Shown piece after piece: positions 43,289 through 64,000 of a stretch of 64,000 nt of DNA. The notes beneath the pieces are model-generated. The model saw nothing but the letters and a program-made list of their open reading frames with translations, did no database searches and was not told where the DNA came from. Source of the stretch: a virus (taxonomy: Duplodnaviria; Caudoviricetes); the IMG/VR virus record IMGVR_UViG_3300023174_000037; one strand, 5' to 3'. Position numbers and translations under genes: made by a program. Within the stretch, counting starts at the first letter, position 1. Each line of letters opens with the position of its first letter.

Positions 43289-45946
43289 TTACCATTCAAA
43301 CAATGTTTGGAAAGTATTTTCTGTGTTAGTAGCACTGGCCAAGTCCCACTCCAACACACCTAACAAGTTATCTAATTTTTGATCTACAACCGTGGCTTCC
43401 ATTTCAGAATGATCAAAAGGTAGATCTTTAAACCATTGCGGTATATGAGTTTCGTCTGTGGGATAACCTATGCTGGTCCATCCTAGTGGATTACTTTTGA
43501 GTTTGCATACAATGGTTTTCATTCCATCCACGATCTGCATTGAATATTTGTCGCCGTTCATCCTACGCAAATTATTCCAATTAAGTGCAGCTCGCACATG
43601 CCCAGGCATGTTGGCTTTGCCTAGTCGTTCTTCTTCCTTGCCATACTTGGTCAAGTTGTTGACACGTTTAGGACTGCCTTTTTCCCAGCCTGGACGTTCT
43701 TTAAAAATGTATTTGAACTCTCGAATTTTTTCAATAATCTGGTCACGACTTGCGCCTACCAACACTTCGTTAAGAATTTCGCTTAAGAAATCTTGAATGA
43801 CCTTGGGAGTGTCACTGCGTTTTAGATCAAGACCCATGGCTTTTACTTTACCAGGACTTCCGTGTGTGTCTACACGTTTGTTCTCTTTGTCATAATACAT
43901 GACAGCATAACGCTTTTTAGTAATAAACAAGCCCTTGCTGGCCACAATCTCTCGCCCACCTTTGATCACTGACCCCATTTCACGTGGCACGTGGAATGCA
44001 GTTTCCATAAAGCCAGGAAAGCTATCGTTGACTTGGTCAGCAATACTGTTATACAGTTGAACAGCAATTTCTCTGTTCCAGGTCATTTCACCTTTGTCAA
44101 TTGATTCTTTAAGCACAGGATAGGCAGTAAAGTAACACGAGTCTGTGTCACCATAGATAATACTTTCACCTACGTGATCGTACTTGCCAGTGATACATTC
44201 GTTTACATAGGCATCCATGTGCCGGGCAATGGCACGACCTGTCAAAGTAGTTGACTGTCCAATACGTTTATCAAAGAATCTACAACCGGGATTAAGAATA
44301 GCACCATACAACGAATTCAAGTTAATTTTCTTAACTAGTTGTCGCTTGTCCCAATATTCCTCGTCTTCTGGCGTCTTTGCTTCTTTTAGTTTGGCCTGCA
44401 TGTCTTTACGTTCGGCGTACCAACGTTTTAACAAGCCTGGGATAACTGCTTCCTTTTCAAAAGTAAAGATTGTGCCATTGGCACTGAGCATCCATGGCCG
44501 GTTACTATCAAATATGATTTTCCATACATCAGCGGCACTGTGAACCGATTCTTCTCCGTCTTTCCAATCAATGGTAATTTCTGTTCCAGGCTCAGTATTT
44601 ATAACTGCGGAATATTCTAAGCTACCAAATAATCCCTCCCATGCCGCAGCAAAACTTGATCCACTACGCATTTTGTCTTGAATATAATGGTCAGTCATTA
44701 CGGGACGTAACTGTCCAACAATAGTTTCTGGTCCCATGTTAAGCGCACGAATGGCACTTGGATACAATGAGTTGATGTCTATTGATCCTACATATTCGTG
44801 GATGCCTTTGCGAGGATAAGCAACATAGGCACCTGCCGCTTGTGTGTCTTCGTCTGAGTAACGTTCTTTACGGTTCGGCACAACCATGCCACGTTCGTGC
44901 GCTTCATTGATAATGGCCTGTTCGGTTACGGCTACAGCACCCATTGTGGTCTGTAGTAGCACAGTATTTTCATGTGCCAGTGTATTAGCTAGATCCAAGA
45001 ACTTTAGTTTCTTGTCCAGCTTGGCAAGAATCATTGTGTCTTGACGGTTGTATTCAATAAACTTTTTGAAATTTTGATTATACAGTTGATCCAATGTGCC
45101 TTCGAACACTGTCTTGGTTTCTTGCAGTTCGTATTCAGCAATGGCATCCAAGCTATAACTATGACGTTCTTCATAAGTATATTTGCGATACAGTTGCATA
45201 TAGTCCATATGCACACGACCAATCAAGTCATATGTTTCGTTTTCTGCACCAAAGCGTTCAAACATACGTTTCTTGGGATATTGATTCCACAGACAAAATC
45301 TGCGGGTGTCGTCCTTGCTGAGCACACGAGTGACACGATTTACTGTGTAGGGTATATCATAGCCCTCACTGTTCCATCCAGACAATGCGTCAGCATCTTC
45401 GATGAGATCTAAAAATGTTTTTAACATCTCATCTTCACGTTCAAACACAATGCAGTTTTCAAATTCTCGAGCAATTTCATCTGCGGTTTCGCGACTCATG
45501 TGTTTGGGCGGAACAACTAGTGTAACCATTTGCTCTAGCCATTGCAAATAGACACTAATAGCAGTAATAGCATTGAATGGGTCTGTGGTTGGCGAAAATC
45601 CACGTTCTGGATCAAAGTCCACTTCAATGTCAAAAAACGCTACATTCAGTTTTGGGCCATCTTGGCCTTTGTAGTTGTCTTCTAGGCAACGAAAAATTGG
45701 ATTAATATCGGATTCATACAGTTGTTTGCCACTCTGTATACGAATTTCTTTACGAAACTCTTTGTTGTTACGAGTGCTGAATCTGCTAACAGGTGTGCCG
45801 AATAGGCTTTGGAATTTACCACGAGGATCCTCGTAATAAAAAATGTAGTTGGCCGGATATTCCTGATAGACTCTGCGGCCATCCTTCCGTTCAACCACAT
45901 GAATACGATCGTGTTCACGATCAAATAGTGCATCTACGTAACTCAA
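43289..45946 (-). CDS. Family B DNA polymerase (T4 gp43-like)
   Basis: FDIEV exonuclease motif, DINSLYPS, KINLNSLYG, YGDTDS and KKRYA. Confidence 0.97.
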   Translation of the reverse strand: MSYVDALFDREHDRIHVVERKDGRRVYQEYPANYIFYYEDPRGKFQSLFGTPVSRFSTRNNKEFRKEIRIQSGKQLYESDINPIFRCLEDNYKGQDGPKLNVAFFDIEVDFDPERGFSPTTDPFNAITAISVYLQWLEQMVTLVVPPKHMSRETADEIAREFENCIVFEREDEMLKTFLDLIEDADALSGWNSEGYDIPYTVNRVTRVLSKDDTRRFCLWNQYPKKRMFERFGAENETYDLIGRVHMDYMQLYRKYTYEERHSYSLDAIAEYELQETKTVFEGTLDQLYNQNFKKFIEYNRQDTMILAKLDKKLKFLDLANTLAHENTVLLQTTMGAVAVTEQAIINEAHERGMVVPNRKERYSDEDTQAAGAYVAYPRKGIHEYVGSIDINSLYPSAIRALNMGPETIVGQLRPVMTDHYIQDKMRSGSSFAAAWEGLFGSLEYSAVINTEPGTEITIDWKDGEESVHSAADVWKIIFDSNRPWMLSANGTIFTFEKEAVIPGLLKRWYAERKDMQAKLKEAKTPEDEEYWDKRQLVKKINLNSLYGAILNPGCRFFDKRIGQSTTLTGRAIARHMDAYVNECITGKYDHVGESIIYGDTDSCYFTAYPVLKESIDKGEMTWNREIAVQLYNSIADQVNDSFPGFMETAFHVPREMGSVIKGGREIVASKGLFITKKRYAVMYYDKENKRVDTHGSPGKVKAMGLDLKRSDTPKVIQDFLSEILNEVLVGASRDQIIEKIREFKYIFKERPGWEKGSPKRVNNLTKYGKEEERLGKANMPGHVRAALNWNNLRRMNGDKYSMQIVDGMKTIVCKLKSNPLGWTSIGYPTDETHIPQWFKDLPFDHSEMEATVVDQKLDNLLGVLEWDLASATNTENTFQTLFEW

Positions 45947-54526: not shown

Positions 54527-54732
54527 TATTTCTTCCGTTTATACTTTTTATACTCTGCAGGCGTGTTGGGCGTTGCATCGTCAGTAGTGTATTTAGCGCC
54601 AGAAAAGAAAGAACCACCATTTCTTGATAATGTAGTGCCTAACGGCATACTAACTGTGGCTATGCTGCCGCTGGTAGTGCTGGCCGTACTGGCGCCATCT
54701 TCTTGTAAGTTAACAAATTCATGCAATCTCAT
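54526..54732 (-). CDS. Small hypothetical protein (MRLHEF... leader)
   Basis: ORF track; coupled. Confidence 0.6.
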   Translation of the reverse strand: MRLHEFVNLQEDGASTASTTSGSIATVSMPLGTTLSRNGGSFFSGAKYTTDDATPNTPAEYKKYKRKK

Positions 54733-55028
54733 TGGTATGGGGCCTCGTCAATAATTGTTAGAACATTATTTTTTATAGTTCCAGGACCAAAATCCACACG
54801 CATATCTGTTACAGTTAGCCAGGCCAAGTGCGGCAAAACCAATTCATGACGTATTGTGTATTCACCAGGTTCGGCTTCAATTTGTAACAGTTCTTCAAGA
54901 TAATGCTCGGTCCAGCGCCAGGTGCGTTCAGCAAATAATTCATCGTTGACATAGGTACGATAAATGGGTTGAAAACTTTCCCATTCGCAATCAATATTAC
55001 ACAGCACCCGTATGAATTGTTTGGACAT
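54729..55028 (-). CDS. Hypothetical protein
   Basis: ORF track; CTAAATA upstream. Confidence 0.65.
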   Translation of the reverse strand: MSKQFIRVLCNIDCEWESFQPIYRTYVNDELFAERTWRWTEHYLEELLQIEAEPGEYTIRHELVLPHLAWLTVTDMRVDFGPGTIKNNVLTIIDEAPYQ

Positions 55029-55046
55029 GCTGTATTTAGTAGCGTT

Positions 55047-55247
55047 TTATTTGACTTCTTTTACACTGCCAACATGCCATTCTTCTACACCGTATTGTGC
55101 CCGCATTAACCTACGTGCTTCTGTGGCATTGGCGGCGGTTACAGTGACATCAATCCAGCCCACATAGTTGGGTTGTTGTATCCGGACCTGTGCAGTCCAT
55201 AATTTATACTTGGGGTATATGTCTCGGGCTTTCATCGTCCAGTCCAT
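55047..55247 (-). CDS. Small hypothetical protein
   Basis: ORF track. Confidence 0.6.
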   Translation of the reverse strand: MDWTMKARDIYPKYKLWTAQVRIQQPNYVGWIDVTVTAANATEARRLMRAQYGVEEWHVGSVKEVK

Positions 55248-57256
55248 TTAGCTATCATACTAACACGGTTACTGCTATAAATGCCAGTGCCACGTCGTGT
55301 GCTACGCATACTACGTCGACCGGGCTCTACAGGAAATGTGTATCGAGTCCATGTGGCATTTTGATCTACAATTTGATCACCGCGTTTCTGGCGATAATCT
55401 TCAGTGGGCTCCATTGCATAACCCTTGACTTCTACACCCGGAATTGAATTTAACATGAGCCACATGGCTTGTCCAAATTTGGTCTGTGTTTCTCCGGTTT
55501 CAAGCGTGAGTTTAAGGATCGTGAGAGCAATACCATACAATGCTTTGCCCAGCCCGCGCCCACGATAATCAGGATCATTGGCCACAGTTTCTACACGCCA
55601 GGTTTTAAGCGGATCAAGGGTGGCACTAAGATCAAGTTCTGCGACCAATGTATCTCCATCAAAGATCATGATTTCCAAAAACTCAGGATCTTTTCGGTTC
55701 ACCGCATAAGAGAATTGACTACCACCTGGCAAGGGTTTAGTTTTGGGCTTTTTTGCCATGGGCATCAGTGTGTCCTTATCACCAAAGTCGCCTTGTGGTA
55801 TGCGGGCTATTTCATCTAACTCTGTTTCCCATACACGTTTACTACCGCGATTCTTATTCCAAAAATGTTTTCCGGCATCAGTCTGCTCGTGACTGCGTTT
55901 TACTTGATAGCCAAGATCTTTGGCATAATCATACATGACAGCCGCAATACCTTGTCCACGATATGCTTCATCAACTAATAAATCCCGTGCTATTAACGTT
56001 TTGCCCGCAACATCAAATACTACTCGTGCTAGATTACGGCCATGTGTATCTGCATCAATTGTTAATTCATTTCCATATTTGTGTGCTGTTAAATCAAGTC
56101 CATCTCTATATGCTTGTTTAACTGCAGGTTCGGCATCTTCAATGATGCCAGTGCTACGACGTAAGCGTAAATCAAAGTCTACATCAGAAATATAGTTACG
56201 AATAAACTTTTCATAATACTGTTGTGCAAGAGCCGGAGTATCAGCTTCAAAACGATCTACTATCTGTGAGCCGCCAGCAGGACGATCAGCGTGATAAATT
56301 TCATAGCCTTTGTTCAAGCGTTCTCTAGCTTGACTCATACGGTCCATTCTGTTACTGACTTGACGGTCAGCACGACTCAAATAACTTTGTAATCGTTCAT
56401 CGCTGATTTCATTGACATCTTGTTTACGAACTGGCTTCCAATGGAATACTGTCATGCCCATGCTGGGATATTCTTCATGCGCCCACTTTGGTCCTAAAAT
56501 GTTCTGCACCACTGGTACAAAGTATTTGCGATACAGGTTGGCGCGGTTGTCACCTTTGGCAGTAAATGATACGCCAGGCGGGCGAGTCTTGGCAATGTAT
56601 TCAGGCAATTGTTGTTTGATCACGTTGAGCACTGTGCTCAATATTCGAACAGTTGACTTACTAGCACTTGTAGGCTGACTTGGAGCATCATAGTCGCTGT
56701 TTACAGTAAATGTAATGTGTAAGGTACCGTTAAATTCGCTGCGATCAAAGAACACATCCACCCAATGTCCATCCACAGTAGAGTGAAACAAACTGCGTTT
56801 TCTTTTGCGGTTGGGTTTGTAGTCAGCTGGTGCGTTGCCTAATTCTGTAAGTTGTTGAACCGGCGCCCAGGCCTGTATATCTGATCTATTCAACAGGTTG
56901 GCGGCGGCCCAAGCTCTGTGATTGCCATCTATGATCCAACCTTTGGAGTCTACCACAATAGGTCTACGATCCACAAAGTTTGCACTATATTCACCCGCAT
57001 GGTCAGGGTCTACAGTTTGCACTCGATTGTATGGATCTTGTTCGGGCTCTTGTTCTTCGTCATCGTACTCTTGATCAGGTATGTGCAAACTGTTTAATGC
57101 AACACGTCGTAGTTCATACTGCGGATAGCGCAGGATCAATTTTTTTAAAAATCCACCACCCTGTTGGTCTTTGGGGTGTATGCCATCTACATAATTCCAC
57201 ACCTGTTCAGCTGACACAACTTTGGCAGATTCAATGACAAATTCACGGGCTTTCAT
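55232..57256 (-). CDS. Modular protein: ParB/Srx-like domain plus two GNAT-like domains
   Basis: PIVVD..GWIIDGNHR; VDEAYRGQGIA and DPDYRGRGLGKALY motif A. Confidence 0.75.
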   Translation of the reverse strand: MKAREFVIESAKVVSAEQVWNYVDGIHPKDQQGGGFLKKLILRYPQYELRRVALNSLHIPDQEYDDEEQEPEQDPYNRVQTVDPDHAGEYSANFVDRRPIVVDSKGWIIDGNHRAWAAANLLNRSDIQAWAPVQQLTELGNAPADYKPNRKRKRSLFHSTVDGHWVDVFFDRSEFNGTLHITFTVNSDYDAPSQPTSASKSTVRILSTVLNVIKQQLPEYIAKTRPPGVSFTAKGDNRANLYRKYFVPVVQNILGPKWAHEEYPSMGMTVFHWKPVRKQDVNEISDERLQSYLSRADRQVSNRMDRMSQARERLNKGYEIYHADRPAGGSQIVDRFEADTPALAQQYYEKFIRNYISDVDFDLRLRRSTGIIEDAEPAVKQAYRDGLDLTAHKYGNELTIDADTHGRNLARVVFDVAGKTLIARDLLVDEAYRGQGIAAVMYDYAKDLGYQVKRSHEQTDAGKHFWNKNRGSKRVWETELDEIARIPQGDFGDKDTLMPMAKKPKTKPLPGGSQFSYAVNRKDPEFLEIMIFDGDTLVAELDLSATLDPLKTWRVETVANDPDYRGRGLGKALYGIALTILKLTLETGETQTKFGQAMWLMLNSIPGVEVKGYAMEPTEDYRQKRGDQIVDQNATWTRYTFPVEPGRRSMRSTRRGTGIYSSNRVSMIAKWTGR

Positions 57257-58134
57257 CGCATAGCCACCTGATAAGATTTAAATTGGTCCTGTCGTGACTG
57301 TAGACCTTTTGATGCAGGATTGATTTTTTTAGTAACCGCATTAGTATTACTAAAGTCTTTGATTTTTGGAGCAACACGATTTTGCCAATACCATACAGCT
57401 ACCTTGGCGGCAACGTCGGGTCTAGCCGCCAGGTCTGGCTGTTGTGCTAGAGGTAGTCCTAGCGCGGCACCAGCACGAGTGTAATTGTCACGGCCGGTTA
57501 ATTGTATATAACCACGTCCTTTGTAGCGTTCGCCGTCGCCTTTGACTTTGTTGCCTAAGATCTTGGCCTTGCGTGGATTTTGTTCATATTTTTTAGTAAA
57601 GTAAGCTGGGCTACCACGTTCTTCCATGCTGGCAAAGTTTGCACTCTCATGAGCACATTGCGCCAAGAACTGTGCCAGTTCTGTGCCTTGGATGCCACTG
57701 GCCATGGCAACAGATCGTAATTGATTAACTGGACCTGCTTGTTGTGCAGGAGCTTGCACTTGTGCAACAGGCGCCTTTGCTTGTGGAGTTGGTGCGGTCA
57801 TTTTTGCATTGGCTGCGCTGCCACCCAAGGCCATTGCTCCGGCTAAGGCGGCACCACCTAACGCACTCTTCCAACCTTCTTCTAAGTCTTCTAGTTCTTC
57901 AGCTGGCCAACTAATAAAACTGTTACCGTTAACATCGCCAGCGCGAACAACAAATGCGCCGCCGTTGTCATAACCTTCGTCTTGACCAATCTCCCAGCCC
58001 ATTGCAGACAGAGCACGTTCAGCACGTGGATCTTCGTCACCTTGCCACCACTGTGCGGCTAACCGGTGTAGTATTTCTTCTTCATTGGGCTCTCTATCGT
58101 CACCACCTGCGGATGCAAATTCATACAGTCTCAT
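57253..58134 (-). CDS. GH19 (chitinase/lysozyme-like) muramidase with N-terminal module and internal signal-like segment
   Basis: AQFLAQCAHES, YKGRGYIQLTGRDNY, AVWYW and KKIN motifs. Confidence 0.85.
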   Translation of the reverse strand: MRLYEFASAGGDDREPNEEEILHRLAAQWWQGDEDPRAERALSAMGWEIGQDEGYDNGGAFVVRAGDVNGNSFISWPAEELEDLEEGWKSALGGAALAGAMALGGSAANAKMTAPTPQAKAPVAQVQAPAQQAGPVNQLRSVAMASGIQGTELAQFLAQCAHESANFASMEERGSPAYFTKKYEQNPRKAKILGNKVKGDGERYKGRGYIQLTGRDNYTRAGAALGLPLAQQPDLAARPDVAAKVAVWYWQNRVAPKIKDFSNTNAVTKKINPASKGLQSRQDQFKSYQVAMR

Positions 58135-59109
58135 TTAGCAATTCCAACGACGACGTGCCTTGCAAATAGCTTTGTCTGGAGTCTTGGCACATGAAATATT
58201 GTGCATCTTCATTTGTCCACGACTGCGTGAGCAATAACTCTTTCTACGCTTTGACGCTTTGCTACCTTTTTTCAACTTTGAAGGCTTGGTAGTCACTGCT
58301 GTTTGTAGTTTGCTACCAGGATGCTCGCGGCGATATGTTTTAACTGCTTTACGACTCATACCGTCTGTCTTGTCTCGATTGTTGGCTTTTTGCCAGGCTT
58401 CGGATTCCATTAATGGGTCAGAGGTCACAGCAAACACATACAGTTCATCTTCTGTGAGACTTTCTAAATCCGCCCAAACTGCTTCTGCATCAACACCATT
58501 GTGTTCAGCAATGGTTTCAATGATACTCTCAATAAGATCAAATTCTTCATGCAGTTCAGCCCTGGCTTCCATACTTAGGCCTGTGCCCAGTTCAAGAATT
58601 CTGCTGAGTTCATCCATGTTCATCTCCTTGTCTTCATTTTTTACACAGTTTGGCACACGTTTACCAAACAGTTCTTTCATGCCTTCTTTGTGATAGCCTT
58701 TCCAGCAGGCTTCATCTAGATTTTGATTGTGCTCGTGTGTTTCACACATGCCACAGTCTTCACAGACCATTTCCATTTCAACACTTTCATTGTGTTTCTT
58801 TTTGCCTGCACAATGCGCCCGTTGGCTAAAACCTTTGGGATGGCTACAGTTAATACTGCTTTTGTATTTCTGACTCCACTTTTCATCCAGTTGATCTACA
58901 CTCTCACTTTTGTTGCCATAATTGGCCGCGCCTTTTTTACGGCATTGTACCAAGCGTCCTGACGCATAGGCACTGGGCCAAACTTTTGCTGAAGCCTTGA
59001 CCTTGTAATAGCAAGCATCTTTCTTTTCGGCAAGTATTAAATCTGTAAATGCAGGACCGCCGCATTCTGGGCAGGTTTGATGAGATTCAAATAAGTCAGT
59101 TATAATCAT
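58135..59109 (-). CDS. Modular Cys/Lys-rich protein
   Basis: CPECG, CY.KVK..KVWPSAYASG, CWKGY and CSRSRG modules separated by x-x-E. Confidence 0.65.
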   Translation of the reverse strand: MIITDLFESHQTCPECGGPAFTDLILAEKKDACYYKVKASAKVWPSAYASGRLVQCRKKGAANYGNKSESVDQLDEKWSQKYKSSINCSHPKGFSQRAHCAGKKKHNESVEMEMVCEDCGMCETHEHNQNLDEACWKGYHKEGMKELFGKRVPNCVKNEDKEMNMDELSRILELGTGLSMEARAELHEEFDLIESIIETIAEHNGVDAEAVWADLESLTEDELYVFAVTSDPLMESEAWQKANNRDKTDGMSRKAVKTYRREHPGSKLQTAVTTKPSKLKKGSKASKRRKSYCSRSRGQMKMHNISCAKTPDKAICKARRRWNC

Positions 59110-59366
59110 TTTTTCTTAGTGGCCACGTTGATGGCCGCTCCTTTTCTATTGGCGTTAGGATCCTGCCTGCGTTTACGAGCTGCCGCTGATGCACGACCTT
59201 TTTTGCCCAGGGCATGTGCTTTGGCCTGTGGCAAACATTTGGGCTTGCCTTCTTTTTCAGATCCACGGGCACAGTCACCACGAATCTTGCCATCGGGCCC
59301 AAAACGTACCCATTTTTCTTTGAACCAGTCACGTAGATTTTCAGTTACAAACTCACTGGCTCTCAT
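59106..59366 (-). CDS. Small basic protein (MRASEFVTE leader)
   Basis: ORF track; TAAATA upstream. Confidence 0.7.
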   Translation of the reverse strand: MRASEFVTENLRDWFKEKWVRFGPDGKIRGDCARGSEKEGKPKCLPQAKAHALGKKGRASAAARKRRQDPNANRKGAAINVATKKK

Positions 59367-62300
59367 TTTTTCTTTCCTCTACGCATATTTATTTGCCAAC
59401 GTGCCAGCTGGCCTTTACGACCCGGTGCTTTTGCAGCCTTTTCTAATTGAGCCATAGTGGCACCTTTGGGTATGCCGTGACGCTGACTGTCTCCAGGACG
59501 TCCTGGACCTTTACCGTCAGCAAAGTTTTCCGCCACACCCGACGCTTGTTTTGTCAGCGTATAAGTTGCGCCACCTGGCATATCACTTCTTTCCAAATCG
59601 TAACCGCTGCCGCTGATGTAGCGTCGAAGCATTCTATCATACAGTCTAGCTCTACTGCCGGTAGGGTCATCCTCTTTTTCTGCACTGAAATTCAACCGCG
59701 CTGGTTTACGCTTGGCGATGAATTGTTGCATGGCAGCGAGCACAGTGGCAAACACTCGTGACGCATCACCTTCACCGGTGATCTCCATGTTTTCGTCACG
59801 CTCAAACTCCACCATCCAACTGTTGTCGCCTTGAGCCATGAACAGCACAATTAGTTCACTGCCGTCATCCAAGTCAGCAGTGGCATGCCAGTCACCATTT
59901 TGTTTGCGCCATTCAACGGCATAAGGTTGATCAAAGGCTTCGTTTATTGTCTCGGTCGGAGTCCATTCAAAACTAGAAACTGGCACTGAATATTTGTCAC
60001 TGAGTTTTTGTAGCAGTGCATCTAGCGTGGCAACAGGAATATTTTTAGCAACTACACGTTGGCCACGACTGCCTGGAACTGGACGATAGTATACATCAAC
60101 ATGTTCAGGATCAATGATGCGTGATTCTGCTACAGCAAATTGATTGCCCAATTGTTTTGCTAAACTTTTTTGTCTATTGATATTGGCCGGAGTGCCTGTA
60201 CCACTTTGTTTGTGATCAAACACACCATACAGTTTGATCACAGTAGGGTCACGACCATCGACACTGTAGAACAAACTGAGATCTCTGGTTAAATGCACAT
60301 GGCGCAACTTTGGCACTTTGGCCAAAGGACCAGCTGCAACAAACGGTGTGTCTTTGCCCCAAGGACGACCAGGGTTGTCGGTTTTAAATGCTAAAAATTC
60401 CTGTATCTTTGCTGGCAAGTTGGGCAGTTGGTTAGACTTGTCAGCTACTGTTTGATCAAACATACTGCTCTTTCTAATTTCAACATTATTGCCAGACTCT
60501 GACAGCATCCATGCACCTTGATCTATTTCCAGCAACAGGTTGACCAAGGCAGGATCAATACTTTCGATCATGACCGGTACTACTTCAATCTGTGTCATGT
60601 CCGCATCAGCAGGTCCATTTTGTTGCAACCATAAAGAGGCTATTCTGTTAGCATCGGCTTGACTGTTGCCTACGCCACGGAATCTATACAGTTCTTGCCC
60701 GGTATCAGTATCCAAGATTCGCCACTGTCCACTAAAACTGTTGCCTGGTGGTGCCGAACTGGCCTGATTTGTGGCGCCAAACAAGTCTCTGAATGAATAA
60801 TCAATGTTGCGGCCATCGGTTCTGTCCTGCGGGAAGTTCTGTTCTATATCCAAGGGCACTTCGGGAATGGATCCAGTTAATCTAGCCTGTAAGTCTGCGC
60901 TGTCTTGGGCGTTGTCCACAGCCTGGTTAGCATCTGCAGCCTTGGTCATTGTTGGAGCTGAGTCAGTGGTTTTGGGTCTCACGTCAAACAGATCAGGTTG
61001 TTCAGCGCCTACGCTCTTTAACCAATTTTTGCCATCTGTTTTCGCATCAGCAGCAGTGTCGCTTAAGAAGGTATGAACCACATGTCCGGTTTCTTTTTCG
61101 TACACTTCCCAATAAGGAACACCACGTTCGTTTGTGTCCTGTTTGGGTTTTTGTTGTTTAGGGTCTGTAATACGCTTGGCCAACTTGGCACGTGGTGTCA
61201 GTGTTTTAGGATCCACATACGGACGCACATTGAATCCTATGTTTTGATTAAGATACTTGTCAAATACTTTGTCAGCGGCAGCACCTTTGTTTGCAGCTTG
61301 AACTATTTCAAGTGTTGCACCAGTTTTAACATCATACACTTCCCACTGTTGATTGTCACTCATGTTGACCAATTGGTATTCACCCGAGTCCAAGGCTTCA
61401 CGACCGTATTTCATCCATACTCTATTTTTAACTTCGTCTTCTTGGAAGCCACGATATTCAGCACCTGGTACTGCGGTCCAGACGCCGTTGACCTTTTGAT
61501 ACAACTTGAAATACTGATTTATTTTCTTTTCATTACCTAGAGTTTTTTCGGCCCAGAGTTTCTTGAGTTGTTCTTTGTCTAGTTCACCTGCGGCATACTG
61601 ACTAAACAAGGCCAGTTGACTGTCGCCTTCGGGGGCAATTAATTTGTATAATTTTTTAGCATACTCTCTACGATCTGTGCTGGCGCTGGCAGCAATTTGC
61701 ATGGCACGGGCATAACGCAACATGGTACTTTGTAATTTTTCAGGATCAGCTGATTCTTCAGCCAACCAATCGCCTCCGGCACTGCGGAATTCTATGTAGC
61801 CATCTTGTATGTGAGCACTGGTATACTTGCCTTGTCCTACACCCTTTTGAATTTCTCGTTGTGCTAATTCAAGCAAGCCATGTTGCATCAACTTCAAAGC
61901 ACCGGCTGGATCTGCACGACCTGATTTGAGATTTTCACGGAAGCTCTTCATTGCTGACTTGGTGTAAGTGTTGGCTTCGCGGCCAAATTGTTGTAGAACA
62001 TATTCGTCACCTAGGAACAGAATAAGTTTTAGGTAGTCAACATCACCACCTTTGTATGGAACACTAACGCCCATGTGTAGGCCAGTTGAATCGTTAGTGT
62101 AAGCATTGCCTTCTGTGCTGTTGGCCCAGTCTGTGACTTGTTGTAATTTTTCCAAGGCCACTAGTAATGGCATTGGAGGACTTACTATTTCCAAACCGTA
62201 GTCTTCACGATCATCTGGACTCAAACTTGAATCTGGCTCTACAATCCATTGGCCTTCTTTACGTGTGGTACTGTGATAATTTGAACTTACTTTGACTGGC

Positions 62301-64000
62301 ATGTCTACAACACCTTGTAAACTGTTTCCAATATCATCCCAATCACGTGACCCATCATTGCCGCCGCCACCGGTCATGTAGGGCCAGTCTAAACCGTACT
62401 CACTGGCCACATCACTCATGTAGCGTAGGCCCGCATCATCAAAGAAACCAGAGTCGTCATCTATCTGATAATTGTCGCGGAAATCATCCAGTGCGGCATC
62501 CCAGTTTGCACCTTCTTTTCTTACTTCGTCGGCTACTAGATCATCCAATAGGCCTTCGGCTTCGCTTTGTGCATCTAGGTATTTTTCATACAGGGGATTT
62601 TCTTTTGCGTAGGCTTGCTGTTCGCTTGATCGGGTAAATTTAGGAGCAGTTTCTCCAGCTTTGATAATTTCATTTATTTCTTCATCTGACAAGTCCAACA
62701 AGGCCAACTGTTTTTGTATCTCGTCGTCCTCATCCCAATCACCTTCGTCAACCAGCACTTTACGAATCAAATCTTCGGCTTCGTCTCTAAATTCTCGAGT
62801 CATTTGTTCGTCGTACCACTCGTAATAGGCTTCATCCAACTGTTCTTGTAGTCGTGCTTCTTGCCTAGAACTTAGTCCACCATATTCGCCGTTGTTAAAG
62901 AAGTCTATAATCTGACTGATACTGCGAACACGTTCGTCGGCATCATAGTCGGGTTCCATTTCGTAATCACTGTCACCATTGTTGGTGGTGTCACGGAAGA
63001 TCAACTCAGCTTCAAATCCGGCACGTATACCTTCGGCTTCTGGACTAGTGGCCCATTTCATCAGGGCCGACGGTGACATTTTAACTTCGTCCAACTGTTC
63101 ACTTTCGGCCAAGGCAAACAGTTTCTTTTCTGCTACCTGCTTGTTGAACATTGTATAACTACGCAAGAATTCTTTTTCTTGTCGTGTAAGTTCGCGGCCT
63201 TGTTGGACTTTGGCCACTAAAAATTTATAATAGTCTGCTTTGTCACGATTCTTGGATACCGGTGCTTGAATATTTTCTTTAAACTGCGCCAGCTCTAATG
63301 CTAATTTTTCAAACAGGCCATTGGCCTTGGCAATCTGCGGAACGCCTTGCTTGTTTGTTTTGAGATTTAATTTGTTGGCTTCTTTGCCAATTTGTCCCGG
63401 CTTGATGTCCACTGTGAGTGCCATACTATAACGTGGATCCTTGGCCTGTTTCTTTGTGGGAATATAACCCGATGCACCTTCGTTGGTTGGCCCAGACGGC
63501 TTTTGCTGATTTTGTTTTTGTAGTTGATATAGCCGACTTTGATTTTGTGCGTTGACTTCACCGCGCTGAGCACGAATAAAATTGTTTAGTTCTTGAGCAA
63601 CGTCAGCTTGTATTACTGTGCTATTGTATTGTTTGGCATTGTAAAGAACACGAGCCGCATCCATTGGCCGCATGCCTTGTTGAGTAGCACAACCACTGAG
63701 ACTGCCTCCGCCGATGATGCAGGCACTTAATGCGGCCACAGCCGATCCTTTAAGGCCTTCATCAACATCTTCTTCGTGTAGGTTGTTGGCTTGTTTCTTT
63801 GTGGAAATGTAACTTGATGCTGATTCAGTGACAGAAAGTCCATGTTTTTGAATGAACTCTTGCATTTTGTTTTCAATCCATTGATCTTCTTGACCAGCCA
63901 TTCTTATTTTATATAGATTTTTGTCATTGTATTCATAGCGACTTTGGTCTTGAAAGTATTTGGAGATTTGTTCAAATGCAGCAAAAAGCTCTGGAGTCTT
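59363..64000 (-). CDS. Very large modular polyprotein with amidoligase-2-like and RelE-like modules; 5' end beyond the window
   Basis: The frame stays open from 63901 to 64000; DSSL, STGLH and YIEFRS motifs; x-x-E linkers. Confidence 0.75.
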   Translation of the reverse strand, partial: KTPELFAAFEQISKYFQDQSRYEYNDKNLYKIRMAGQEDQWIENKMQEFIQKHGLSVTESASSYISTKKQANNLHEEDVDEGLKGSAVAALSACIIGGGSLSGCATQQGMRPMDAARVLYNAKQYNSTVIQADVAQELNNFIRAQRGEVNAQNQSRLYQLQKQNQQKPSGPTNEGASGYIPTKKQAKDPRYSMALTVDIKPGQIGKEANKLNLKTNKQGVPQIAKANGLFEKLALELAQFKENIQAPVSKNRDKADYYKFLVAKVQQGRELTRQEKEFLRSYTMFNKQVAEKKLFALAESEQLDEVKMSPSALMKWATSPEAEGIRAGFEAELIFRDTTNNGDSDYEMEPDYDADERVRSISQIIDFFNNGEYGGLSSRQEARLQEQLDEAYYEWYDEQMTREFRDEAEDLIRKVLVDEGDWDEDDEIQKQLALLDLSDEEINEIIKAGETAPKFTRSSEQQAYAKENPLYEKYLDAQSEAEGLLDDLVADEVRKEGANWDAALDDFRDNYQIDDDSGFFDDAGLRYMSDVASEYGLDWPYMTGGGGNDGSRDWDDIGNSLQGVVDMPVKVSSNYHSTTRKEGQWIVEPDSSLSPDDREDYGLEIVSPPMPLLVALEKLQQVTDWANSTEGNAYTNDSTGLHMGVSVPYKGGDVDYLKLILFLGDEYVLQQFGREANTYTKSAMKSFRENLKSGRADPAGALKLMQHGLLELAQREIQKGVGQGKYTSAHIQDGYIEFRSAGGDWLAEESADPEKLQSTMLRYARAMQIAASASTDRREYAKKLYKLIAPEGDSQLALFSQYAAGELDKEQLKKLWAEKTLGNEKKINQYFKLYQKVNGVWTAVPGAEYRGFQEDEVKNRVWMKYGREALDSGEYQLVNMSDNQQWEVYDVKTGATLEIVQAANKGAAADKVFDKYLNQNIGFNVRPYVDPKTLTPRAKLAKRITDPKQQKPKQDTNERGVPYWEVYEKETGHVVHTFLSDTAADAKTDGKNWLKSVGAEQPDLFDVRPKTTDSAPTMTKAADANQAVDNAQDSADLQARLTGSIPEVPLDIEQNFPQDRTDGRNIDYSFRDLFGATNQASSAPPGNSFSGQWRILDTDTGQELYRFRGVGNSQADANRIASLWLQQNGPADADMTQIEVVPVMIESIDPALVNLLLEIDQGAWMLSESGNNVEIRKSSMFDQTVADKSNQLPNLPAKIQEFLAFKTDNPGRPWGKDTPFVAAGPLAKVPKLRHVHLTRDLSLFYSVDGRDPTVIKLYGVFDHKQSGTGTPANINRQKSLAKQLGNQFAVAESRIIDPEHVDVYYRPVPGSRGQRVVAKNIPVATLDALLQKLSDKYSVPVSSFEWTPTETINEAFDQPYAVEWRKQNGDWHATADLDDGSELIVLFMAQGDNSWMVEFERDENMEITGEGDASRVFATVLAAMQQFIAKRKPARLNFSAEKEDDPTGSRARLYDRMLRRYISGSGYDLERSDMPGGATYTLTKQASGVAENFADGKGPGRPGDSQRHGIPKGATMAQLEKAAKAPGRKGQLARWQINMRRGKKK

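Follow-up and report, generated by a model that had tools for sequence, protein, structure and literature searches.

In this work, we examine a 64,000-nucleotide stretch of viral DNA (hereafter the window) from the IMG/VR record IMGVR_UViG_3300023174_000037 (Duplodnaviria, Caudoviricetes), all the genes of which lie on the minus strand. One of these genes (57253..58134, minus strand) encodes a 293-residue protein which, on the basis of the open reading frame (ORF) listing, Pfam and its homologs, is a tagged precursor of a muramidase of glycoside hydrolase family 19 (GH19). Buried in its chain, directly behind a glutamate junction of the type cut by the head protease of T4 and ahead of the catalytic domain, is a segment of 24 residues (residues 87-110; 57805..57876, minus strand) that is best read, by comparison with homologs, as an export signal. 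We favour, though tentatively, the view that this protein is a head-cargo muramidase bearing two address labels in series, which would be packaged, cut at E86, injected and finally exported by the newly infected cell.

The architecture can be read directly from the translation. The product of 57256-57876 (minus strand) starts with G87 and reads GWKSALGGAALAGAMALGGSAANAKM..., hence the assignment of 57805-57876 to residues 87-110, and residues 84-112 of the whole protein read LEE↓GWKSALGGAALAGAMALGGSAANA↓KM (arrows mark cleavage positions, here predicted), with L84-E85-E86 preceding G87 and K111-M112 following A110. From the N-terminus, the precursor comprises a tag with likeness to the capsid-targeting sequence (CTS) of T4 (residues 1-16, MRLYEFASAGGDDREP; 58087..58134, minus strand), a small alpha/beta module delineated in the AlphaFold2 model that would constitute the propeptide (residues 17-83; 57886..58086, minus strand), and the head-protease-type site L-E-E, where conservation and the rule of T4 gp21 predict a cut after E86 (residues 84-86; 57877..57885, minus strand). 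Then come the export-signal-like segment, defined by translation and comparison, in which GWK, SALGGAALAGAMALGG and SAANA make up the n-, h- and c-regions, a linker rich in Pro, Ala and Gln delimited by its conservation and its predicted local distance difference test (pLDDT) values (residues 111-132; 57739..57804, minus strand), and the GH19 catalytic domain recognised by Pfam and Foldseek (residues 133-293; 57256..57738, minus strand). The initial annotation had proposed this succession of a protease-type site, a basic residue, a hydrophobic core, an ANA motif, a linker and a GH19 domain, and both the ORF translation and Pfam bear it out.

The protein of the window contains one enzyme domain in addition to a small module. 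Pfam recognises Glyco_hydro_19 (PF00182) over residues 150-276 (E 4.3e-14, 53.3 bits for a cut-off of 25.5), and the PHROG endolysin profile phrog_181 matches the protein with an E-value of 3.8e-40. Furthermore, a Foldseek search relates the AlphaFold model to GH19 endolysins of phages, namely 9ms7 (TM-score by target of 0.76), 4ok7, 8p8e and 9eoi, at a probability of 1.00. The two glutamates E163 (57646-57648) and E172 (57619-57621) within AHESANFASMEE are invariant across an alignment of 27 sequences, and we take them, as in GH19 endolysins, to be the catalytic pair of the family, the members of which are about eight residues apart. The model displays two folded parts, the alpha/beta module 17-83 (pLDDT about 80-90) and the GH19 domain 133-293, and residues 1-16 and 86-132 have pLDDT values below 50. 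Because residues 86-132 fall outside both folded domains, the hydrophobic segment is probably a free inter-domain element and not a buried helix.

The junction that precedes this segment is strongly conserved. While the 293-residue protein has 1762 homologs at E<=0.001, an exhaustive HMMER search using the fragment starting at G87 as query yielded 453 clusters at E<=1e-30, and the best 150 representatives (50%-identity clusters) were classified. Of these 150 representatives, 97 have the pattern E↓[GDNS][W/L..][KR] and, next to it, an uncharged hydrophobic core; among the rest, 29 have looser junctions, 10 a twin-arginine motif and one (P0183) an ordinary N-terminal signal anchor. Position P3 of the 97 junctions is occupied by Leu (58), Ile (19) or Val (15), that is in 92/97 (95%), P1' by Gly in 70 and Asp in 25, and P2' by Trp in 92. 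Likewise, E86, A100 and G104 are invariant, and W88 nearly so, in the 27-sequence alignment, the upstream parts of which are unrelated, a degree of conservation beyond what chance would produce. The initial annotation had set beforehand, as a test, the retention of the Glu site and of the hydrophobic stretch in homologs, and this is what is observed.

What lies upstream of the junction varies from a 9-residue tag alone, as in P0099 (MRAQEFICEDLDE↓GWKER...), to a small module, a GNAT domain or several modules in series, up to 1,370 residues of polyprotein. In L014, L017 and L018, the cassette and the GH19 domain form the last module of polyproteins reaching 1,588 residues (open frame), which start with nucleotidyltransferase and amidoligase modules as does the 2072-residue neighbour encoded in the window. 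The eight residues up to the Glu carry a mean net charge of -3.2 in the 97 representatives, and the n-region behind it has a net charge of 0 to +1. Acidic residues immediately ahead of a signal are the reverse of what a functional n-region requires; cleavage behind the Glu would remove them and leave a free amino group together with a Lys or Arg. An internal start codon, raised in the initial annotation as another explanation for the segment, is rejected, since there is no in-frame ATG, GTG or TTG between residues 80 and 100 and the only nearby in-frame ATG or TTG codons, those of M101, L103 and M112, are inside or after the core.

The segment itself has the layout of an export signal, with K89, the 16-residue core SALGGAALAGAMALGG, a helix break at G104-G105-S106, and A108-N109-A110 preceding K111. 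Its hydrophobicity is low, with a Kyte-Doolittle mean of about 1.3 over 19 residues, and the family shows the same trend (median core length of 16 and mean Kyte-Doolittle value of 1.45 in the 97 representatives). Low hydrophobicity fits the post-translational SecA/SecB or twin-arginine translocation (Tat) routes and not that of the signal recognition particle (SRP). Gly, Ala and Ser account for about 70% of the family core in a count blurred by register, a composition reminiscent of signal-arrest-release (SAR) endolysins, but at an internal position: the segment starts at residue 87 of the primary product and would become N-terminal only after the predicted cut. Homologs containing a LysM domain ahead of GH19 have an equivalent junction and signal, LEE↓DWKSALATGAMAGAMAMGANA↓K (that is LEE↓DWKS...ANA↓K), and L007 contains LDE↓GWKSNLAGAAMVGLSALGGAGHAQA↓A, again a buried signal after a Glu.

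Independent support for reading the segment as an export signal comes from its interchange with Tat signals. In 10 of the 150 representatives as well as in L026-L028, the same slot between the Glu junction and the linker with GH19 is occupied by a twin-arginine signal, E↓D(I/L)SRRGFLGG...AQA↓K. The NCBIfam model TIGR01409 (TAT_signal_seq) scores above its cut-off in five of these ten representatives and just below it in four, each match beginning 1-3 residues past the Glu. Furthermore, a second buried signal, of the lipoprotein type with a lipobox, is encoded in the window within the 2072-residue polyprotein, which runs off the window end (VDE↓GLKGSAVAALSACIIGGGSLSGC↓ATQQ; 63689..63757, minus strand). 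Tat and lipoprotein signals are read from the cytoplasmic side by the host machinery, which favours export from the cytoplasm over insertion from outside.

Two side observations concern these signals. The lipoprotein-type signal at 63689-63757 sits about 610 residues into the polyprotein, directly past a hydrophobic-x-Glu site. L051 (8606-12079, plus strand), a polyprotein of 1,158 residues in an open frame of 1,161, contains an internal textbook Tat motif, GVSE↓DMTRRGFLRGVGAAALAGAAGAASA. In it, MAE↓GWK is followed by a hydrophobic module rich in Gly, and the module borders are marked by LNEFAP, which echoes the N-terminal tag.

The other address label is the N-terminal tag. IPII and IPIII of T4 start with MKTYQEFIAE↓A and IPI with MKTFKEF...ITE↓A, and starts of the same kind in the window are MKAREFVIE↓S, MRASEFVTE↓N, MRLHEFVNLQE↓D and, in the GH19 protein, MRLYEF. 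The latter has M-[KR]-x-x-E-F in common with the T4 tag, without its I-x-E end, and this is a likeness of sequence only. Across the family, 100 of the 150 representatives start with M[RK]xx[ED][FLIY], compared with 0.3% expected by chance per ORF. In T4, 10 N-terminal residues of IPIII are enough for targeting to the head, the capsid-targeting system packages foreign proteins, and gp21 cuts after L/I-X-E (PMC9026906). A site of this L-X-E/I-X-E type is present at L84-E85-E86, between the would-be propeptide and the predicted mature protein.

Such a protease is encoded by relatives of the phage. The DNA polymerase of the window (43289-45946) shares 42-50% identity with the polymerases of jumbo phages of the T4 superfamily, namely Phosso, Atu_ph07 and the 121Q/GAP32 group. 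Protease and lysis genes were examined in IMG/VR contigs carrying copies of the gene 51-92% identical to that of the window. Peptidase_S77, the prohead protease of T4 gp21 type, is found above cut-off in three of these related contigs (G001, G003 and G005), and the order of genes in the relatives is that of T4, with an acidic core protein followed by the S77 protease, a gp22-like scaffold and the gp23 capsid protein. Once aligned with T4 gp23, the capsid proteins of the relatives keep LLE↓G and ILE↓N, and their propeptide ends with L-R-E↓ or L-A-E↓. The site at E86 obeys the rule of the protease family encoded by the relatives and stands behind a T4-like tag, which together point to a cut by the head protease and to a head cargo.

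A four-step pathway can be drawn from these likenesses. The MRLYEF... tag would bring the precursor into the assembling prohead, by analogy with the 10-residue CTS of IPIII. A gp21-type protease would then cut after L84-E85-E86, removing the acidic tag and module (residues 1-86) and leaving a mature protein that starts with G87-W-K; we infer this cut from the motif and its conservation, and because relatives encode the enzyme. The mature protein would leave the virion together with the DNA and reach the next host cell, where its new N-terminal export signal may engage the post-translational Sec pathway, taking the GH19 domain across the inner membrane, as the Tat swap suggests. After crossing, GH19 may either be freed by signal peptidase I or behave like a SAR anchor. 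What the sequences show directly is the architecture, the conserved junction, the interchange with Tat signals, the intact catalytic pair of GH19 and, in the closest relative, a distinct lysis endolysin; packaging, cleavage, injection and export are inferred from likeness and conservation.

Several observations weigh against this pathway. As regards the protease, S77 is seen in relatives only and was not found in two relative fragments, both incomplete; [LIV]xE is a short motif, and the cutting enzyme could instead be a zincin-type peptidase. As regards the signal, the net charge of the n-region is weak (0 to +1), and all the matches to the Pfam TAT_signal model, which is shorter than TIGR01409, are sub-threshold (12-15 bits versus 22.7). 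An AxA motif is present in only 45 of the 97 representatives and is missing in one clade (GGQQALKQY); the ANA motif highlighted in the initial annotation therefore holds as A[DNS]A↓K in the clade of the window, but not as a family feature. Counting the distance to AxA is uninformative, as Ala-rich cores yield spurious AxA at position 16. The hydrophobic core (residues 90-105; 57820-57867, minus strand) is also more conserved than any other part of the protein. In 58 homologs with the architecture of the window protein, identity to it reaches 96% for the core, 88% for GH19, 72% for the N-terminal module and 52% for the linker, and the pattern AGA[ML]A[LF]GG recurs in the core across distant clusters. 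Signal-peptide cores usually drift in sequence. Such conservation hints at a different role or at an additional, sequence-specific one, for example SAR-like release, helix packing or membrane activity. Finally, the family is without a cultured relative, since in a tblastn search against phage records the best match reaches 53% of the protein, through the GH19 domain only. The matches of DUF5065 (E 0.0063) and of the PHROG 443 'holin' profile (E 3.8e-5), which overlap the hydrophobic segment, are too weak to count as evidence. Taken as a whole, the interpretation offered in the initial annotation is partly supported.

The conservation of the core is an argument for a first alternative, which we regard as unlikely, namely that the protein helps entry from outside. 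According to it, packaging and cleavage take place as above, but the tail would release the protein into the periplasm, where GH19 would open the wall locally while the Gly/Ala-rich helix would enter the inner membrane from the periplasmic side and help to build or anchor a DNA conduit, like T7 gp14-16 or the P22 ejection proteins. A conservation of 96% is far beyond the needs of a signal peptide, and the core is rich in small-xxx-small patterns, as found in membrane-packing helices. Virion-borne wall hydrolases active at entry are well known, T7 gp16 and T4 gp5 being examples, and this also speaks for it. In addition, the P22 ejection proteins form a trans-periplasmic conduit (PMC8402733). 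However, the twin-arginine signals that homologs carry in the very same slot, and the lipobox signal of the neighbouring gene, are of kinds that are read from the cytoplasm. Besides, the lysozyme or SLT domain that the relatives encode in a large protein beside their head and tail genes would serve entry, and T4 head proteins are known to reach the cytoplasm (PMC9026906).

The relatives also bear on the possibility that the protein acts at lysis. They encode a second GH19 protein, which in G002, the closest relative, whose tagged GH19 is 92% identical to that of the window, is a soluble protein of 207 residues devoid of tag and of hydrophobic segment. The G002 locus (L063; 748-1802, minus strand) contains the gene for this protein and, at once after it, a gene for a 144-residue protein that has membrane helices in its N-terminal part and ends in a coiled coil, a candidate holin or spanin, so that the arrangement is an ordinary-looking one for lysis. 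A Phage_lysozyme or SLT domain is moreover found beside the head genes of relatives, within open frames of 791 or 1,146 residues (L061, G003 153958-154323; L062, G001 183383-183616), which are likely tail or baseplate lysozymes. With a soluble endolysin and a likely tail lysozyme in the relatives, the tagged GH19 would be a third wall hydrolase, and the soluble GH19 that G002 encodes in addition, next to the gene of a membrane protein, agrees with the initial annotation, which had distinguished the tagged enzyme from the endolysin acting at lysis.

An auxiliary, membrane-tethered lysin that is never packaged is nonetheless conceivable, albeit improbable in our opinion. Here, the N-terminal motif would be no capsid tag, no cleavage would take place in the producing cell, and the hydrophobic segment of the intact precursor would serve as a signal anchor (N-in, C-out) or as a SAR domain. 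SAR and signal-peptide endolysins exported by the host Sec machinery are established (PMC7143992, PMC7312051). The Gly/Ala composition of the core is SAR-like, the PHROG endolysin and holin profiles overlap residues 84-285 and 88-165, respectively, and one family member, P0183, does have an ordinary N-terminal signal anchor. Against these similarities stand the strongly acidic residues before the signal and the cytoplasm-type enzyme modules, up to 1,370 residues of them, placed ahead of it. Tat signals are not known to function far inside a chain. Moreover, a lysin of this kind would give no role to the invariant Glu nor to the Leu, Ile or Val at P3, and G002 already has its soluble endolysin beside a membrane-protein gene.

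Lastly, the junctions may be cut, in the producing or in the newly infected cell, by a cargo-borne zincin/MPTase-type peptidase before export of the freed GH19, a reading that we find unlikely. MPTase-mediated processing of injected polyvalent proteins has been proposed (Iyer et al. 2017, PMC5512222), and P0239 contains weak metallopeptidase-like matches upstream of its Tat signal. However, the junction fits L/I-X-E, the specificity of the T4-type protease that relatives encode, the capsid propeptides of these relatives contain the same motif, and many members of the family, including the protein of the window, are without a peptidase module of their own.

The gene is surrounded by others with similar starts. 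Only four M[KR]xxEF starts occur in the 64 kb, all in one block (54529-59366, minus strand; within 54.7-59.4 kb), and the corresponding ORFs encode a protein of 68 residues, one of 674 residues with two GNAT domains, the GH19 protein and one of 86 residues. On the basis of the ORF listing and Pfam, the gene adjacent to that of the GH19 protein on one side (55232..57256, minus strand) encodes the 674-residue protein, tagged MKAREFVIE↓S, and that on the other side (58135..59109, minus strand) a 324-residue DUF6321 protein starting with MIITDLFE↓S; the ORF listing then gives the 86-residue protein, tagged MRASEFVTE↓N (59106..59366, minus strand). The starts MIITDLFE, MFALDLF and MNITELD of neighbouring genes look like members of the head-cargo tag family. 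Homologs of the DUF6321 neighbour are found in more than 300 records of cultured T4-like cyanophages, for example ORF_115 of S-TIM4, which starts with MATNEIIE. As for the N-terminal module of the GH19 protein (residues 17-83), it has no Pfam family, no feature match in the ESM Atlas and no structural match (best Z 4.1, TM<0.5), and it recurs, with up to 91% identity, in modular proteins lacking GH19 (L037-L040, L050, L051 and L053).

The time of expression of this block was approached through promoter motifs. The T4 late promoter TATAAATA occurs four times in the window, for 3.6 expected, and none of these occurrences is near the gene. A 7/8 match, AATAAATA, is present at 59386-59393 (minus strand), about 20 nt upstream of the gene for the 86-residue protein, where the polyprotein gene ends. 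This match may be the late promoter of the four-gene block, a motif of this size being too short to judge. GTAAATA precedes the polyprotein gene and, in one relative, a head gene. Together, these motifs are too weak to date expression.

How do these proteins compare with known systems? They resemble the T4 internal proteins IPI, IPII, IPIII and Alt by the tag of M[KR]xxEF[IV]xE type found in the block of the window, the L/I-x-E cut site, the S77 protease encoded by relatives and the location of the genes away from the head module. They differ from them in that an export signal, with a wall hydrolase behind it, would form the predicted mature N-terminus, and in the existence of long multi-module polyproteins. 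The T4 internal proteins have their action in the cytoplasm and are not known to bear an export signal, none being reported in the literature searched. With SAR endolysins (P1 Lyz, R21 of phage 21) and signal-peptide endolysins, the GH19 precursor shares a muralytic enzyme placed behind a weakly hydrophobic segment rich in Gly and Ala; however, the signal of these endolysins is truly N-terminal and they act at lysis of the producing cell, whereas here 9 to about 1,370 residues and an acidic Glu junction precede the signal, and a relative has a separate soluble endolysin. T7 gp16 and, according to its annotation, T4 gp5 are likewise particle-borne wall hydrolases that do not serve lysis, but they have direct access to the wall from the tail or core, whereas the present muramidase would need the export machinery of the host, as the Tat variants imply.

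Closer to the polyproteins are the polyvalent proteins (PMC5512222), in which shuffled effector modules, including lysozyme-type and GNAT domains, are combined in one polypeptide that would enter the cell along with the DNA and be split into units. The processing invoked there is MPTase autoproteolysis, whereas the junctions described here follow the head-protease rule and some modules have Sec, lipoprotein or Tat signals; signal peptides, transmembrane segments and the periplasm each receive zero mentions in Iyer et al. 2017 (PMC5512222). In phiKZ, 201phi2-1 and SPN3US, with their ejection or inner-body proteins, many head proteins likewise undergo cleavage behind Glu by a protease related to gp21 and enter the cell by ejection (PMC9026906, PMC7411985), but their motif is S/A-X-E and not L/I/V-X-E, and the literature searched contains no export signals at their new N-termini. 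More generally, this search returned nothing relevant on export signals buried in head-packaged phage proteins. The parts of the proposed pathway, namely T4 capsid targeting, gp21 processing, Sec and SAR endolysins and polyvalent proteins, are known, and an export signal armed by capsid maturation is absent from the literature searched.

Beyond the muramidase, and more tentatively, giant T4-like phages may possess a two-stage address system, in which a capsid tag would load enzymes into the head, the head protease would uncover Sec, lipoprotein or Tat signals, and the new host would re-sort the cargo between cytoplasm and periplasm, the muramidase then acting early in infection, in wall remodelling or in the blocking of rivals, and not at lysis. 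If this is true, phages deliver ready-made proteins through the Sec or Tat machinery of their victim into the periplasm and not into the cytoplasm alone, with the head protease as the arming switch, and injected phage proteins would have access to one compartment more than is known so far. It would also explain why a phage endowed with a normal endolysin and a tail lysozyme has a third wall hydrolase. The cassette is short and modular, and the succession of a tag, L/I/V-x-E and a signal would provide a sequence rule for finding periplasm-directed cargo in thousands of genomes of uncultured phages.

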